Below are positions 19,532-58,936 of a DNA stretch of 64,000 bases, in pieces; within the stretch, counting starts at the first letter, position 1; each line of letters begins with the position of its first letter. The translations under genes and the position numbers were made by a program. The notes beneath the pieces are model-generated. The model was given only the letters and a program-made list of their open reading frames with translations. It ran no database searches and was not told the origin of the DNA. Origin of the DNA: an uncultured Actinomycetes bacterium (GTDB lineage Bacteria > Actinomycetota > Acidimicrobiia > IMCC26256 > PALSA-610); contig CAVPMX010000002.1 in assembly GCA_963706745.1 (NCBI GenBank), forward strand, positions 204,936 to 268,935, written 5' to 3'.

Positions 19532-19554
19532 CGGCCGCCCCCTCTGCCGTCACG

Positions 19555-19602
19555 AAATGCTGCCGGAACCGCTGCCGGAAATGCTGCCGGAAATGCTGCC
19601 GA
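19555..19602 (-). repeat. four tandem 12-bp repeats in the whiB-like gene leader/promoter
   Basis: Plus strand: AAATGCTGCCGG|AACCGCTGCCGG|AAATGCTGCCGG|AAATGCTGCCGA. Located 24-71 nt upstream of GTG 19531. A fifth degenerate CGGCAG follows in phase. Confidence 0.85.
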
Positions 19603-34822: not shown

Positions 34823-35092
34823 ATGGAACTGCCCGAAGAGGTCGTCGACGATCTTCTCCGCCGCCTGCGCCGCATCGAGGGGCAGGTGCGCGGCGTCCAG
34901 GGCATGCTCTCCGAGCACCGCGAGTGCCGCGACGTCGTCACCCAGATAGCGGCCGCCACCAAGGCTCTCGAGCAGGTCGGTTTCAAGCTCCTCGCGTCGG
35001 GGCTCACCTCGTGCCTGCAGGATCCCGCCCGGGCGGAGGCCGAGGGCTATCCGGTCGAGGAGGTCGAGCGCCTCTTCCTCAAGCTGACGTGA
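34823..35092 (+). CDS. csoR: CsoR/RcnR-family metal-sensing repressor (DUF156)
   Basis: LLRRLRRIEGQVRGVQGMLSEHRECRDVVTQIAAATKALEQVG, a typical CsoR helix bundle with Cys/His ligand positions. Confidence 0.85.
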   Translation: MELPEEVVDDLLRRLRRIEGQVRGVQGMLSEHRECRDVVTQIAAATKALEQVGFKLLASGLTSCLQDPARAEAEGYPVEEVERLFLKLT

Positions 35093-35102
35093 GCTGACGT
35101 GA

Positions 35103-35286
35103 GCATGAGTGAGGCCGCCGCCGTCCGCTCCGGGCCGACCCAGGCCGGCCGAGCGTGGCCCGAGCGGCCCGGCCCGCAGGGCCAGGAGCGGGAAGCATGA
35201 GTGAGGCCGCCGCCGTCCGCTCCGGGCCGACCCAGGCCGGCCGAGCGTGGCCCGAGCGGCCCGGCCCGCAGGGCCAGGAGCGGGAA
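35103..35286 (+). repeat. two tandem 92-bp MIRU-like units, each a 31-codon mini-ORF with an ATGA stop/start overlap
   Basis: Unit = GC ATGAGTGAGGCCGCCGCCGTCCGCTCCGGGCCGACCCAGGCCGGCCGAGCGTGGCCCGAGCGGCCCGGCCCGCAGGGCCAGGAGCGGGAA. ATGs at 35105, 35197 and 35289 (period 92). Mini-ORFs span 35105-35200 and 35197-35292 (MSEAAAVRSGPTQAGRAWPERPGPQGQERE[A/S]*). The last ATGA is the start of the CoA-transferase gene. Confidence 0.9.
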
Positions 35287-35288
35287 TC

Positions 35289-36527
35289 ATGAGCATGAGC
35301 GGTGGACCGCTGGCCGGGGTCCGCGTGCTCGACTTCTCCAGGGTCCTCGCAGGCCCGTACTGCGGGCGCATGCTCTCCGACCTCGGGGCCGACGTCGTCA
35401 AGATCGAGCCTCCCGAGGGCGACCTGACCCGCTTCGCGGACCCGAAGGTGAACTCGATCTCGCTCTACTACGCGCAGCAGAACACCGGGAAGCGCAACGT
35501 CTCGATCGACCTGCGCCGCGCCGAGGGAGTCGACCTCGCACTCCGCCTCGCCGAGCGCGCCGACGTCGTGCTGGAGAACTCCCGACCCGGCGTGATGGAC
35601 CGGCTCGGCCTCGGGTACGACGCCGTCTCGTCGCGGAACCCGCGGGTCGTATACGCGTCGATCACCGGCTATGGCCAGAGCGGGCCGTGGTCGGGACGCC
35701 GCGGATACGCCGTGCTCGTACACGCCGAGGCCGGCCTCGACGAGGCGGGCGCAAGGCTCCGCCGCGACGCGGGCGACCCCGACGCGACCCCCGTGCAGGA
35801 CGGCACGTCGCACGCCGACGTCTATGCGGGGCTGCACGCCGCGTCGGCGATCCTCGCGTCGCTGTTCGCGCGCGAGCACACCGGTAGCGGACAGCACATC
35901 GACGTCTCGATGGCAGAGGCGATGCTGCACACCAACGACTTCGCGCACTGGGATCTCGTCGGCGCCGAGACGGGCGACAGGTGGGCAGCCCTGGCACCCG
36001 CGTACTCCCCGATCGTGCGCACCGGAGCAGGATGCTCGATCACGATCGCCGGCGACCCGGTCGCCCCGGGCCTCTTCGAGCGCTACCTCGCCGCCCTGGA
36101 TCGTCGCGACCTCGCCGACGACCCGCGCTTCGCCATGGAGCGACGTCGGCTGCACCGACGCGAGCTCCTGCACCTGATCGAGGAGTGGACACTCACCTTC
36201 GACGACGTCGACCGCCTCGAGGCGGTGCTCGACGCTCACGGTCTGCCGGTCGGACGCCTGCGAACCGTCTCCGAGCTGCTGGAGACCGACTGGGCGCGCG
36301 AGCGCGGGGTCGTCGCGCAGGTCCCCGATCGCGGGCAGGGGACCATCCCCGTGCCCCAGGCGCCATGGCGGTTCTCCTCGCTGCCCGTCGGCGTGCGTGG
36401 CGAGCCTGCATACCGCGGCGAGCACAACCGCGAGGTGCTCGGGGAGCAGCTCGGGCTCACCGGCGAGGAGCTCGACGCCCTGGACCACGACGGGGTGATC
36501 TCGAGTCGCCTGCCCCGGGATCGCTGA
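35289..36527 (+). CDS. CaiB/BaiF family III CoA-transferase
   Basis: MSMSGGPLAGVRVLDFSRVLAGPYCGRMLSDLGADVVKIEPPEGD is a canonical family III N-terminus. Confidence 0.9.
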   Translation: MSMSGGPLAGVRVLDFSRVLAGPYCGRMLSDLGADVVKIEPPEGDLTRFADPKVNSISLYYAQQNTGKRNVSIDLRRAEGVDLALRLAERADVVLENSRPGVMDRLGLGYDAVSSRNPRVVYASITGYGQSGPWSGRRGYAVLVHAEAGLDEAGARLRRDAGDPDATPVQDGTSHADVYAGLHAASAILASLFAREHTGSGQHIDVSMAEAMLHTNDFAHWDLVGAETGDRWAALAPAYSPIVRTGAGCSITIAGDPVAPGLFERYLAALDRRDLADDPRFAMERRRLHRRELLHLIEEWTLTFDDVDRLEAVLDAHGLPVGRLRTVSELLETDWARERGVVAQVPDRGQGTIPVPQAPWRFSSLPVGVRGEPAYRGEHNREVLGEQLGLTGEELDALDHDGVISSRLPRDR

Positions 36528-43333: not shown

Positions 43334-44467
43334 TCACGGGATCAGAGGGTAGTAGGGACCGTCGCGAGTGATCTCGGGTGTGCTCTCGAAAGCCTCGAGC
43401 ATCGGGTAGAGGTCGAGACTGTCGCGAGGCATGCTCCAGTCGAGATCGCCGGTACATCCCGCGGCGTCGGCGAACGGTCTGATGAACGAGTAGTAGACGT
43501 ATGCCCCCGCGTCGATCTTCTCGCGCCTCTCCATGCCGGCGATCAGCCTGTAGCAGCGCTTCTGGGCGTCCTTCACGGCGGCGGCCAGAGCGTCGGCACC
43601 GGCGGAGTCGATCGGCGCGAGTCGCCCGCCCGACGTGTCGAAGAGGCCGAACGACTGCACGTGCGGCAGGTAGTCCTCCGGCTCGGTCAGCGAGGTGCCC
43701 CAGTCGGTCACCCTCAGGCGGACGCCGTCGAGCACGAACGCCGCGAGCACGTTGTCGTTCGGGAGGTCGCACGCGACCTCGGCACTCCACGGGAAATCGG
43801 AGACACCGAACTTGTTGAACGCCCGCAGCAGCAGCACGCGTCCGTCGGGGAGGACGTACGGGCCGGTGTCCTGGTAGCCCGCACGCGTGTCGAAGTAGAG
43901 GAGGAAGAGGTAGGAGGTGAGGAGCGCATTGAGGCGCTGGATCTTGGAGCGCCGCTCGTCGGTGACGGGTTCGCACCCGGCTACCACCTCGTCGACGTAT
44001 TCGGAGTACGGGCGGTTGACGCCACCGGTGTCCCACGCCTGGTGCGCGGCCCCCGCGTGGTACGCCCGGGCGGCGCGCTCCCAGAACTCGACCATGATCC
44101 CGCAGCGCGCGAGGTCTTCGTCCCAGTCGATCATCCCGGCAGTTGCGAGGACGTTGCGCCCGGTCAAGAAGATGTTGGTGAGCGACCACAGGTGCACCGC
44201 ATCGACCTGGTTGCCGACCGTGCGACCGGTCGCGCCGATCTCCTCGGGCGGCCTCGCCGCCGCGACCACTCGCAGCATCTCCGGGTGGCGTCGATAGCAC
44301 TCGATGCCCGAGATGAGGATGTATGCCGTCACCGGGATGAGGGCCGACTCCAACGCCGTGCGCTGCACGGTGAGCGTGTAGGAGATCTCCCCGTGGTACT
44401 CCAGCCACCGATTGACGGCGGCCTTGTCCCACCCGGCCGGCGGCTCGAGAGCTCCCGCGCCGCTCAC
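43334..44467 (-). CDS. hypothetical protein (377 aa), family not recognised
   Basis: Balanced, globular-looking composition (WLEYHGEISYTLTVQRTALESALIPVTAYILISGIECYRRHPEML...YVYYSFIRPFADAAGCTGDLDW). 4-nt overlap with the upstream gene. Confidence 0.65.
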   Translation of the reverse strand: MSGAGALEPPAGWDKAAVNRWLEYHGEISYTLTVQRTALESALIPVTAYILISGIECYRRHPEMLRVVAAARPPEEIGATGRTVGNQVDAVHLWSLTNIFLTGRNVLATAGMIDWDEDLARCGIMVEFWERAARAYHAGAAHQAWDTGGVNRPYSEYVDEVVAGCEPVTDERRSKIQRLNALLTSYLFLLYFDTRAGYQDTGPYVLPDGRVLLLRAFNKFGVSDFPWSAEVACDLPNDNVLAAFVLDGVRLRVTDWGTSLTEPEDYLPHVQSFGLFDTSGGRLAPIDSAGADALAAAVKDAQKRCYRLIAGMERREKIDAGAYVYYSFIRPFADAAGCTGDLDWSMPRDSLDLYPMLEAFESTPEITRDGPYYPLIP

Positions 44468-44811
44468 GCGGGCCGCCGGACGACGCCCAGCTCACCGCTG
44501 CAGTCGATCTCGACCGTGTCGCCGTTCGCCGGCTCGTCGCCGAGGGTGGTGCCCATGACGCACGGCACCTGGTACTCGCGACTCACGATCCCCACGTGGC
44601 TCTGCGGGGTGCCCGAGAGGCAGACGACGGCCGTGAGCTCGTCGAAGATCGGGGCGAGGAACGTCGCGCCCGCGTCGGCCACGCAGGCCACGACCCCCTC
44701 GGCCGACCCGTCCATCAGATCGAGGACGTCGTCGGGGGAGTCGAGCCGCCGCCACACTCCCTGCACCGGTGCCGCGTCGAAGACCTTTGTTCCGCTTCCG
44801 ATCTCGCTCAT
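44464..44811 (-). CDS. stand-alone PEP-utilising-enzyme mobile (swivel phosphohistidine) domain protein
   Basis: GVVACVADAGATFLAPIFDELTAVVCLSGTPQSHVGIVSREYQVPCVMG resembles the PF00391 swivel domain with the candidate phospho-His. ATG 44811 has a GGAGCGGAG SD. An in-frame 31-codon extension from ATG 44904 is possible. Confidence 0.8.
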   Translation of the reverse strand: MSEIGSGTKVFDAAPVQGVWRRLDSPDDVLDLMDGSAEGVVACVADAGATFLAPIFDELTAVVCLSGTPQSHVGIVSREYQVPCVMGTTLGDEPANGDTVEIDCSGELGVVRRPA

Positions 44812-45055
44812 GATCTCCGCTCCTGGCCCTGCGGGCCGGGCCGCTCGGGCCACGCTCGGCCAGCGCGGGACGCGAGCTCTCTCGTACAGGGCAGCCTCGC
44901 TCATGATCTCCGCTCCTGGCCCTGCGGGCCGGGCCGCTCGGGCCACGCTCGGCCGCGCGGGACGCGAGCTCTCTCGTGCTGGGCAGCCTCGCTCATGATC
45001 TCCGCTCCTGGCCGCGCGGGACGCGAGCTCTCTCGTACAGGGCAGCCTCGCTCAT
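44812..45055 (-). repeat. tandem array of three MIRU-like units (93, 92 and 59 bp) forming uORFs in the operon leader
   Basis: Minus-strand ATGs at 45055, 44996, 44904 and 44811. uORF-C: MSEAALYERARVPRGQERRS* (ATGA overlap). uORF-B: MSEAAQHERARVPRGRAWPERPGPQGQERRS* (ATGA overlap). Unit A (93 bp) reads through in frame into the gene. The 3' ~45 bp are near-identical to the 35.1-kb units. Confidence 0.9.
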
Positions 45056-45166
45056 CGGCGGGGGAGCCTACCGAGGACCGCACGGGGAGGCGAAACGCGC
45101 AGCGCCGGTGACCGAGAGCGGCTCCGGCGTGCCTTCGCGGAGTCCCGCCCCGTACGATCGCAGCCC

Positions 45167-45775
45167 GTGAGCGATCTACCGCCCGACCACGACGCCTGGG
45201 AGCTCCTGCACGACCTCCGTCTGCGGGGCCTGGTCGAGGAGTCCGAGCACGAGCACGCCGACCTCCTGGTCGAGATCGGCTTCGCCGTCCGCAAGCGGAC
45301 CTACCTCGCCGTGACCCCCGAAGGCCGGGAGCGCCACGCCGCATGGGTGCGCGTCGCCGACGACGCACCCGAGTACGACGCCGCTCGCCGCGCCTACGAG
45401 GCCTTCCTGCCGCTCAACGTCGAGCTGATCCGCCTCTGCTCCGACTGGCAGGTCCGTCCGGGCAACGTCGCGAACGACCACACCGATCTCCGCTACGACT
45501 GGGGCGTCGTCGACCGCCTGCGTGCGCTCGACGAACGAGCCGGTGGCGTCATCCGCCGCCTGGCGAGGGCCGTACCCCGATTCGCCTCATACCGACCCCG
45601 CCTGCGCGACTCCCTGCGCCGTGTCGAGGACGGGGACAACGACTGGTTCACCTCACCCCGCATCGACTCGTATCACACGGTCTGGATGCAGATGCACGAG
45701 GACCTGCTGGCGACCCTCGGCCTGTCCCGTGCGGACGAGGACCCCGGGCCAGAGCCTCCTCCGCCGGGCGCCTGA
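45167..45775 (+). CDS. hypothetical protein (202 aa)
   Basis: GTG start. Non-repetitive sequence (…DWQVRPGNVANDHTDLRYDWGVVDRLRALDERAGG…DSYHTVWMQMHEDLLATLG). Divergent from the PEP-domain operon. Family not recognised. Confidence 0.6.
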   Translation: MSDLPPDHDAWELLHDLRLRGLVEESEHEHADLLVEIGFAVRKRTYLAVTPEGRERHAAWVRVADDAPEYDAARRAYEAFLPLNVELIRLCSDWQVRPGNVANDHTDLRYDWGVVDRLRALDERAGGVIRRLARAVPRFASYRPRLRDSLRRVEDGDNDWFTSPRIDSYHTVWMQMHEDLLATLGLSRADEDPGPEPPPPGA

Positions 45776-57830: not shown

Positions 57831-58055
57831 TCAGCGGGCGACGATCACGGCGACGACGGTGAGGGCGTAGACGACCGCGAGTAGGGCGACGAGCGCCCAG
57901 AGGCTCGCTGCGGTCAAGGGGTTGGGCCTCTCCGGCCCGGTCGACTGGTGGAGACCGCACGCCGGGCACCGCGCAGCACCGGCGGCGACAGGCGCGCCGC
58001 AGAGCATGCAGGCATCGCCTGCGGTGCCGGGCGAGGGCTCGGACTGAGCGGTCAC
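57831..58055 (-). CDS. small zinc-ribbon membrane protein (74 aa), coupled to folD
   Basis: Last 74 codons of the 657-aa track ORF. GTG in a GTGA overlap with the folD stop. CMLCG...CPACG plus a C-terminal TM helix (LWALVALLAVVYALTVVAVIV). Confidence 0.55.
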   Translation of the reverse strand: MTAQSEPSPGTAGDACMLCGAPVAAGAARCPACGLHQSTGPERPNPLTAASLWALVALLAVVYALTVVAVIVAR

Positions 58056-58097
58056 GATCTCCGCTCCTGGCCCTGCGACCCGGCCCGCCGCTCGGCC
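58052..58097 (-). repeat. partial copy (3' module) of the MIRU-like repeat embedded in the folD 3' end
   Basis: Minus strand: GAGCGGCGGGCCGGGTCGCAGGGCCAGGAGCGGAGATCGTGA, versus GAGCGGCCCGGCCCGCAGGGCCAGGAGCGGAGATCATGA at 44.8 kb. The 22 nt before the start codon are identical. Confidence 0.65.
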
Positions 58098-58936
58098 GCC
58101 TCGACGGTGGACCTGAGGAGCATCGCGATGGTCATCGGGCCGACACCCCCCGGGACCGGCGCGACCCACTCCGCCACCTCCATCACGTCGTCGGCGACGT
58201 CGCCGGCGATCCCCTCGTCGGTGCGCGTGATACCGACGTCGAGAACGGCCGCGCCGGGCTTGACCATGTCGGCCGTGATCAGCCCCGCCCTGCCTGTGGC
58301 CGCGACGAGGATGTCGGCCTGCCGGGTGAACTCCGGGAGGAAGTGCGTCCCCGTGTGGCACTGGGTCACGGTGGCGTTCGCGTTCTCGGCCTTGAGCGAC
58401 AGCAGCATCGAGAGCGGTCTGCCGACGGTCGGACCGCGCCCGACGATGACGACGTGGCGCTCCTCGATCGGCACCTTGTGCCGCACGAGCAGCTCGACGA
58501 TGCCCTGCGGCGTACCGGGCCTCGGGTGGCCGGGCACCCCGAGTGCGAGGTACCCGAGGTTCTGGGGATGGAGACCGTCGACGTCCTTGGTCGGATCGAC
58601 CGCGAGGATCAGCTCCGAGTAGTCGAGGTGGTCGGGGACCGGGTACTGGATCAGGTACCCGTCGACCTGCGGGTTCGCGTTGAGCTGCGCTATCAGGTCG
58701 AGCACCTCTTCTCGCGACGAGTCGGCCGCGAGGTCGTGCCTCCACGAGGCAACCCCCAGCTCCGCGCAGGCCCGGTGCTTGCTGCGGACGTACACGTGCG
58801 AGCCCGGGTCGTCGCCGATCAGGACCGTCGCGAGCCCGGGTGTGACGCCACGCTCGGCGAGGGACTCGACACGAGCCCGGAGCTCGTCCTTGATCACCGC
58901 AGCCTTGGCCCTGCCGTCGAGAATCGTCGCAGTCAC
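58052..58936 (-). CDS. folD: bifunctional methylenetetrahydrofolate dehydrogenase/cyclohydrolase
   Basis: ILDGRAKA...YVRSKHRAC...[14 protein letters not shown]...[15 protein letters not shown]. Confidence 0.95.

Follow-up and report, generated by a model that had tools for sequence, protein, structure and literature searches.

What is the short tandem array that stands ahead of a gene for a phosphoenolpyruvate (PEP)-utilizers mobile (swivel) domain protein, and why do its units carry reading frames that run onto the next start codon? The array lies in a window of 64,000 nucleotides (nt), by which we mean the whole stretch of DNA analysed, from contig CAVPMX010000002.1 of an uncultured member of the Acidimicrobiia (positions 204,936 to 268,935, forward strand). 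The array probably represents a dispersed repeat that duplicates and occupies translation start sites in a clade of Acidimicrobiia, here present as three copies in tandem. The repeat is a genome-wide, multi-species start-codon element and not a leader specific to two genes, a point missed by the initial annotation of the window.

The array ahead of the swivel gene

The units and the gene that follows them are all on the minus strand, and both complete units carry a hairpin followed by a Shine-Dalgarno sequence (SD). ORF denotes an open reading frame.

45055-44997, minus strand: unit C, 59 bp, core deleted; 20-codon ORF (MSEAALYERARVPRGQERRS) with an ATGA end
44996-44905, minus strand: unit B, the canonical 92-bp unit; it has an ORF of 31 codons, the invariant core and AGGAGCGG, and its stop overlaps the ATG that follows
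44930-44918, minus strand: hairpin GGCCC-GCA-GGGCC of unit B, followed by AGGAG at 44917-44913
44904-44812, minus strand: unit A, 93 bp; its ORF is in frame with the gene, giving 146 amino acids (aa)
44837-44825, minus strand: hairpin of unit A, followed by the SD at 44824-44820, 8 nt 5' of the gene ATG
44811-44464, minus strand: PEP-utilizers mobile (swivel) domain gene, 115 aa (Pfam PEP-utilizers, E 7.7e-10)

The 9-nt string ATGAGCGAG opens every unit and also the swivel gene itself. It lies on the minus strand at 45055, 44996, 44904 and 44811, by direct reading and by script, and divides the region into head-to-tail units of 59, 92 and 93 bp. Tandem Repeats Finder reports the array at 44803-45020 with a period of 92, 2.4 copies and 96% matches. 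The initial annotation had described three such units ahead of the gene, with upstream ORFs (uORFs) of 31 aa in unit B and 20 aa in unit C, both ending in ATGA, and these descriptions were confirmed. Unit B ends ...GGGCCAGGAGCGGAGATCATGA, with its TGA overlapping the next ATG. Unit C has lost 33 nt between two GGCC motifs and keeps its frame and its ATGA. It had been described as unit B minus exactly this segment; the 33-nt deletion stands and the exactness does not, as the first 42 nt of unit C are those of unit A (CTGTAC) and unit B (CAGCAC) differs from them at two positions. The extra base of unit A, a T at the junction of the variable and constant parts (CGCGC-T-GGCC), does fuse the unit in frame to the gene, as had been noted, and unit A retains its own AGGAGCGG-N5-ATG ahead of the start at 44811.

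Dispersal, registration and empty sites

The family was collected by the exact 27-mer GAGCGGCCCGGCCCGCAGGGCCAGGAG, searched in one genome per bacterial and archaeal species. This string occurs at 68 loci (cited below by L numbers) in 33 species, all of them represented by metagenome-assembled genomes (MAGs), with up to 7 loci per genome. The records of these hosts are labelled mostly as Acidimicrobiia, two as Actinomycetota, and three as Bifidobacteriaceae or Bifidobacterium. The loci from records titled as Bifidobacteriaceae or Bifidobacterium breve MAGs are L012, L016, L027, L044 and L057. The downstream protein of L057 is ~98% identical to that of L006, a locus in an Acidimicrobiia MAG from Lake Baikal, and the Bifidobacterium-type labels look wrong.

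When up to 3 mismatches in the 27-mer are allowed, 92 copies are counted. They form 74 arrays, of which 59 have one unit, 12 have two and 3 have three. The periods found are 92 bp (11 times), 93 bp (twice), 53 bp (twice), 51, 86 and 89 bp, and unit length ranges from 51 to 98 bp across the family. A generalised unit starts with [A/G]TGAGCG-R-R-GC and continues with ~25-40 nt that are specific to the lineage or locus. These are followed by an almost invariant constant module of ~45 nt, ...GCGGAGCG(T/G)GGCC(C/T)-GAGCGGCCCGGCCCGCAGGGCCAGGAGCGG, then ~5 nt and ATGA, the usual end of the element being AGGAGCGG-N5-ATGA. Short forms of 51-53 bp are without the variable segment, and a short form (L004) and a long one (L031) were found at the same orthologous site.

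The genes behind the element are diverse. Downstream proteins (n=52) match 89 Pfam families, with no more than three proteins in any one family, and include Der/EngA, NuoD, NuoH, KdpA, citrate synthase, ArgJ, EPSP synthase, ABC transporters and luciferase-like oxidoreductases; this diversity argues that the element is not a regulon-specific leader. A two-unit concatenate used as a protein query matched 9 proteins, among them in-frame double units, and a metagenome scan with the conserved promoter-plus-start pattern returned only two loci, both already in the set. Comparison of the units with plasmids by blastn gave no match, Rfam gave none at the gathering threshold for the whole window and none at E <= 1 for 44700-45200, and a literature search for Acidimicrobiia repeats with uORFs yielded no description. 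The sequence family is one that we could not find described.

The copies are registered on the codons around them. The core always has the orientation of the downstream gene and mostly ends 8 nt ahead of the ATGA, and the downstream start lies 5-11 nt past the core in ~84 of the 92 copies. A typical copy has a start codon 57 nt 5' of the core, in frame with the TGA of the ATGA. We counted a mini-ORF as coupled if it had a start no more than 80 nt upstream, in frame with a stop overlapping the next start. About 77 of the 92 copies are coupled, 75 by this strict test and two more (L031 and L052) through TGATG. Copies with a spacer of 9 or 10 nt (L005, L007, L011, L037, L043 and L063) have their start shifted to -50, -52 or -55; the overlap of stop and start is kept, and the core is read in frame 1 or 2. 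Of 65 distinct units, 2 have a stop in the variable part in the frame of the start codon; for the other two frames the numbers of such units are 8 and 13, and shuffles give 10.4 +/- 2.8. The initial annotation had suspected that translation through the units matters, and the coupling, the compensating shifts of the start and the depletion of stops all lend support to this.

Selection on the encoded peptide left no such trace. The variable part has no bias in GC at third codon positions (GC by codon position 0.66/0.72/0.67, against ~0.72/0.50/0.90 for genes of the window), and its column entropy is without three-base periodicity. Substitutions among the core variants are ~9 non-synonymous and 3 synonymous, or ~3:1, by a hand count from the variant sequences. 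Since stops are depleted, coupling is kept and the variable part has no codon signature, selection appears to keep the frame open and its end on the next start, with no detectable selection on the peptide.

At the 5' end, 33 of 64 arrays have a first unit whose ATG overlaps the stop of an ORF upstream on the same strand, and in 7 more such an upstream ORF ends no more than 60 nt away. Between fliM and fliN lies an array of two units with ATGA at both ends, which is the same in 5 independent samples. Its first unit is 93 bp long and in frame with the second, which means that in-frame 93-bp units like unit A exist elsewhere. To take the in-frame fusion of unit A as designed would be to over-read it: one-nt length variants occur at other loci, some in frame (L065 and unit 1 of L083) and some out of frame (L008, L022 and unit 2 of L015), and for this reason the extra T may be an incidental, tolerated indel.

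Orthologous loci were reached through homologues of the swivel protein, and the start of the swivel gene is occupied in some relatives and empty in others.

Swivel gene start, L070-L074: empty
Swivel gene start, L075/L076: empty
Swivel gene start, L080-L082: empty
Swivel gene start, L069: one unit (loop GCA changed to GGA)
Swivel gene start, L079: one unit or more, the core being cut by a contig break
Swivel gene start, L017: three 92-bp units; the closest relative, ~91% in the neighbouring ORF
Swivel gene start, window: three units of 59, 92 and 93 bp
45095-45065, minus strand, window: promoter-like block, TTTCGC (45095-45090), spacer, TAGGCT (45070-45065), 9 nt before the ATG of the first unit

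At filled sites the ATG of the first unit lies exactly where the gene ATG lies at empty sites, and in the alignment of both the ATG of unit C occupies the ancestral gene-start position. On either side of the inserted block stands the 9-nt direct repeat ATGAGCGAG, already present at the empty sites. An upstream block, GTTTCGAC-N15/16-TCGGTAGGCT-N9-ATG, is common to the closer loci (the window, L017, L069, L070 and L075). At L070-L074 and L075/L076 it runs directly into the gene (ATGAGTGAAATAGGG, ATGAACGAGATAGGG) with no SD, the empty sites reading as a TAGGCT box followed by the gene start ATGAGYGAR; the more distant empty loci L080-L082 have TAATGT-N7-ATGAGCGAGATCGGG. The conservation of TTTCGAC-N-TAGGCT is the one thing that points to the block as a putative promoter. 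A sigma-70 and terminator scan of 44700-45300, in which the promoter consensus is that of E. coli, found no sites. Because a conserved TAGGCT stands 9 nt before an ATG that has no SD, the comparison suggests that the start of the swivel gene is leaderless or near-leaderless.

When the loci are ordered by identity in the adjacent 377-aa ORF, filled and empty states interleave, so that at least two gain or loss events are needed. The variable parts of L017 and the window appear to share an ancestor, because they are ~70% identical by hand count. The 377-aa ORF itself (43334-44467, minus strand) overlaps the stop of the swivel gene at 44464-44467 and is a conserved partner of that gene in all relatives, with 71-91% identity. 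It had no Pfam match, and a possible role for it is that of catalytic partner in a split PEP-utilising enzyme.

Traces of how the element spreads are found in three features. Downstream starts read [A/G]TGAG[C/T] at 46 of the 68 loci, a form that ~8% of the long ORFs of these loci have. The direct repeats shared by the start of a unit and the start of its gene are ~7 nt long at the median and extend up to 20 nt. Whole units, including the 'variable' part, are common to different loci of one genome (L021/L045/L061; L015/L039). These features indicate what is probably a duplicative spread to sites that resemble the unit's own ends.

From this anatomy a mechanism can be proposed. A unit would insert in register with a pre-existing start, either a promoter-proximal ATG without an SD, as at the swivel locus, or the ATGA of an operon junction, and would take over the original initiation event. 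Ribosomes would read through the unit and melt its structure, terminate on the start codon of the gene, and re-initiate there with the aid of the SD that the unit supplies. The insertion would be tolerated because the unit is itself translated and would be nearly transparent to expression. The terminal direct repeats (ATGAGCG...) would promote tandem gain, loss and internal deletions, and with the short internal repeats (GGCC, GGAGCGG) they could account for tandem expansion, the 33-nt deletion of unit C, the 59-, 92- and 93-bp variants and the 0, 1 or 3 copies seen in relatives. At the swivel gene, initiation at 45055 would lead through mini-ORF C and mini-ORF B into unit A, and the outcome would be a mix of the extended 146-aa protein and the 115-aa protein started at 44811.

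Core conservation and rival explanations

Four orthologous pairs allow the parts of the unit to be compared. Identity is 0.66-0.81 at third codon positions of the downstream gene, 0.63-0.98 in the variable part and 0.93-0.98 in the 44-nt core. Judged by these alignments, the core is evidently under constraint or homogenisation as a nucleotide sequence, and this holds even for copies inherited vertically. As the family was collected by an exact 27-mer, this comparison, and not the raw invariance of the core, is the relevant evidence that the core evolves slowly.

A small hairpin, GGCCC-GCA-GGGCC, lies directly 5' of AGGAG. Among 25 distinct core variants it is 95.9% paired and has two pairs with compensatory changes, and 1-4 of 500 shuffles reach the observed values. 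The compensations are GGTCC/GGACC (U-A) in L013 and GCGCC/GGCGC (C-G and G-C) in L062; these amount to three compensated cells, and the core is too invariant for statistical power. The loop variants GGA, CCA, GAA and GTT fit the same hairpin, as does a symmetrically shortened stem, the shortened or re-looped forms being found in L011, L028 and L037. The variants thus give modest support to a 5-bp hairpin adjoining the SD. The initial annotation had proposed another fold, with TGGCCC...GGGCCA arms that could gate initiation, and this did not hold up. The longer helix is the RNAalifold consensus, with a covariation term of only -0.54 kcal/mol. It is 85.4% paired, a value that 215 of 500 shuffles reach, and its end positions vary freely (T/G/C/A, C/T/A/G); tested together with an inner GCGG/CCGC helix, it is no better than shuffles. 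Single-sequence folding energies are likewise indistinguishable from those of shuffles (z +0.6 to -2.0).

Two observations concern other parts of the unit. One subfamily has a covarying hairpin in the variable part, with the forms GGCGGG-TAC-CCCGCC, GCCGGG-TAT-CCCGGC and GGCGCAGG-TAA-CCTGCGCC. At unit positions 6 and 49, the T of ATGAGT occurs with the A in GAACG/GAATG in 6 of 9 cases and the C-A combination was never seen; this co-occurrence could be a long-range pair or a subfamily signature.

A slow core beside an SD is also what would be expected of a structured leader RNA that regulates in cis, for instance a translational operator or a thermometer, in which the core folds or binds a factor and gates the SD, the carriers form a translational regulon and the mini-ORF is secondary. 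The core, third codon positions included, is nearly invariant in 33 species and is kept at orthologous sites whose flanks have diverged, and the compensated, shortened and re-looped hairpins described above would all be in keeping with such a leader. However, the downstream genes have no common functional theme, the element is present or absent at the same orthologous gene among close relatives, and its copy number varies. The negative Rfam search, even at E <= 1, the unremarkable folding energies and the small RNAalifold covariation term also argue against it, and the hairpin that has support excludes the SD. We consider a structured leader improbable. Genuine small proteins or leader peptides of ~31 aa, ending ...AWPERPGPQGQER.., for example a nascent arrest peptide that controls the downstream gene, would explain an open and coupled frame, the same C-terminal peptide in most copies and the existence of in-frame multi-unit ORFs. 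Yet nucleotide identity automatically yields peptide identity, the core is read in other frames where the spacer is 9 or 10 nt, and the variable part has no codon-position signature. Together with the excess of non-synonymous changes in the core, the common W/G and P/S replacements at its edge and the loss of most of the peptide from short forms and from core-less units such as unit C, this makes a selected peptide very improbable.

A purely local origin, by tandem duplication of the 5' region of the gene or by collapse or expansion in the assembly, has in its favour that units within an array are 96-99% identical, that short-read contigs break inside the element (L079) and that single-base length differences could be sequencing errors. 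It is hardly credible in view of the core at two other places in the window and at 68 loci in 33 independent assemblies, both long- and short-read, the three units with a diverged variable part at the same locus in the closest relative, L017, and the array that is identical in five samples. The initial annotation had named assembly artefacts as a possible source of the length differences. As a complete explanation this is refuted, and what is left to resequencing is just the exact number of copies and unit A's extra T. Three further candidates were rejected: a CRISPR-like array, whose 'spacers' would here be near-identical within an array and whose units are ORFs; a riboswitch, as there is no gene theme; and an attenuator or terminator, as there is no U-tract.

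The dispersed, duplicating start-codon repeat that we favour has to accommodate several points that weigh against it. Some copies break the rule, with the frame off by 1 nt (L008, L022, unit 2 of L015 and L065), and others are orphans without a start codon (L003, L010, L030, L039 and L068). Some of the MAGs are long-read assemblies, in which single-base indels may be errors, and sampling by an exact 27-mer is biased towards conserved copies. No transposase or other mobilising partner was identified, where the analysis covered 8-kb loci around the copies and no search aimed at a RAYT or TnpA gene was made, and we infer the transcription start, the translation of the uORFs and re-initiation alike. 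Moreover, the conservation of the core across species and at vertically inherited sites exceeds the needs of a neutral passenger. A model of a transparent passenger leaves this conservation unexplained and so leaves room for a recognised site, for mobilisation or for regulation; conservation this extreme hints at a function or at recognition by some factor.

Some of these loci have features of their own. The ORFs listed around the orphan copies suggested nothing, and L003, L010, L030 and L039 are orphan or decayed copies. At L068 (2900-3150, plus strand) the core is part of an 89-bp tandem repeat of different composition, whose partner segment contains the palindrome CCTGCGCGG...CCGCGCAGG. The repeat has no start codon and no gene after it, a context outside the start-codon model. 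At L017 (3122-4600, plus strand; FR_1 MAG) a stop interrupts the swivel gene after 93 nt, and the alignment of the 377-aa ORF falls into two pieces. These broken ORFs are either assembly indel errors or pseudogenes, and they call for caution with single-base length differences in copies from long-read MAGs.

One further idea bears on the slow core. The core might be the recognition site of a dedicated trans-acting factor, either one that copies the cassette onto starts of the ATGAGC type or an RNA-binding regulator. We put this forward tentatively and think it rather unlikely. If the factor were an RNA-binding regulator, the ~10-20 tagged genes per genome would form a translational regulon tunable by copy number, in which leaderless genes had been converted into SD-dependent, uORF-coupled genes.

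Known repeat systems and further copies in the window

Among known elements, the closest in architecture are MIRUs (mycobacterial interspersed repetitive units), reportedly described by Supply et al. in 1997 and 2000. The repeat described here shares their size range of 40-100 bp, their dispersal at tens of loci, often in tandem and with variable copy number, and their position at start codons or intercistronic junctions in the orientation of the gene. In both, a small ORF is coupled to the downstream gene by a 4-nt overlap, which is thought to make the insertion harmless. MIRUs are 40-100 bp long and occupy 41 loci in strain H37Rv, with copy-number polymorphism at 12 (PMC2734929). They are inserted at start codons, and their internal ORF is coupled at -4 spacing with minimal impact on expression (PMC12548453). 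Length classes that differ by internal segments are a further likeness, the modular 55- and 79-bp units of ETR-F (PMC2734929) comparing with 59, 92, 93 and 51-53 bp here.

There are also differences. The hosts are uncultured Acidimicrobiia and not Mycobacterium, and as all hosts found are Acidimicrobiia, the element is not a MIRU in the taxonomic sense. A core of 27-45 nt is nearly invariant across many species and the rest is lineage-specific, and at the swivel locus the element sits on an SD-less, probably leaderless start, to which it adds an SD. The likeness is one of architecture, set by the descriptions of MIRUs and not by sequence comparison. With these differences in mind, we regard a dispersed, duplicating, translationally coupled insertion of the MIRU kind as the best reading and a likely one.

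Short uORFs that deliver ribosomes to a coupled gene, with termination and re-initiation at ATGA, have been reviewed (PMC12548453, citing Shell et al. 2015). The units resemble them in the 4-nt overlap of stop and start, in the SD just upstream and in the unimportance of the peptide sequence, and in both cases translation of the upstream frame is expected to open structure and to feed the downstream start. Such uORFs are single and locus-specific, whereas the unit described here is a repeated cassette of variable copy number at many genes.

Rickettsia palindromic elements have their insertion sites within coding regions and become part of the translated protein, with reading frames that stay open. 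Like the present element they are small repeats that persist by keeping frames open and genes functional; they lack the registration on start codons, the SD and the stop-start junction, all of which the present element has. Repetitive extragenic palindromic (REP) sequences, the bacterial interspersed mosaic elements (BIMEs) and the miniature inverted-repeat transposable elements (MITEs) derived from IS200/IS605 are short, GC-rich, dispersed, hairpin-containing sequences conserved within a lineage. As in those elements, conservation at the level of the lineage could reflect recognition by a trans-acting enzyme. REPs are extragenic, mostly 3' of genes and in both orientations, and have no ORF and no registration on start codons. 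In the present family, by contrast, every copy that has a neighbouring gene points the same way as that gene and is registered on its start codon.

For decades MIRUs have served in the typing of M. tuberculosis, and to our knowledge they are known from one genus with little sequence diversity. Here the same architecture is found in a different class of Actinomycetota and in dozens of species, and the empty and filled sites and the conserved core offer a comparative handle on how repeats of the MIRU type spread, are tolerated and act. The unit variants (92, 93, 86, 89 and 51-53 bp, and core-less remnants) amount to natural mutants, and the swivel locus illustrates how a leaderless gene could gain a leader, an SD and an upstream ORF in one step. 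For annotation, the units yield spurious 'hypothetical proteins' of 31-62 aa and wrong N-terminal extensions, and they break short-read assemblies.

The window holds a second array and a degenerate copy of the element.

35105-35196, plus strand: array 1 unit 1, 92 bp, 31-codon ORF with an ATGA end, 12 nt past the stop of a CsoR-like repressor gene
35197-35288, plus strand: array 1 unit 2, 92 bp, with a stop that overlaps the start (ATG, 35289) of a CoA-transferase family III gene
58095-58052, minus strand: degenerate third copy, consisting of the 3' half of the core and GGAGCGGAGATCGTGA

Tandem Repeats Finder reports array 1 at 35102-35293 with a period of 92, 2.1 copies and 99% matches. The initial annotation had described the 5' halves of the units of this array and of the array at the swivel gene (array 2) as completely different and the 3' ~45 bp as shared. 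The sharing stands, as the last ~47 nt are identical; the complete difference does not, as the first 15 nt match at 13 positions (ATGAGYGAGGCYGCC) and only ~27 nt in the middle of the unit are locus-specific. With shared ends and a locus-specific middle, the units of the two arrays belong, as had been proposed, to one modular repeat family. Four occurrences of the 35-nt core are found in the window where 0 are expected, and the tail GGCCAGGAGCGG-N5-RTGA occurs 7 times with one mismatch allowed (six of them exact) where 0.02 are expected. The sixth exact match is the degenerate copy, which is fused in frame as a C-terminal tail (..GSQGQERRS*) to a FolD-like ORF (58052-58936, minus strand). The TGA of this ORF overlaps the GTG of the next, a small, Cys-rich, hydrophobic ORF, in a GTGA junction that the degenerate copy supplies.

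Two short repeats complete the inventory. A 10-bp tandem repeat, AGCTGACGTG, with 3.2 copies at 35082-35113 (plus strand), runs across the stop of the CsoR-like gene into the ATG of the first unit; slippage at the insertion junction may have left it as a footprint. A 12-bp tandem repeat, GAAATGCTGCCG, at 19554-19601 (plus strand; 4 copies, 88% matches, score 82) is richer in AT than the DNA around it and has no relation to the element.

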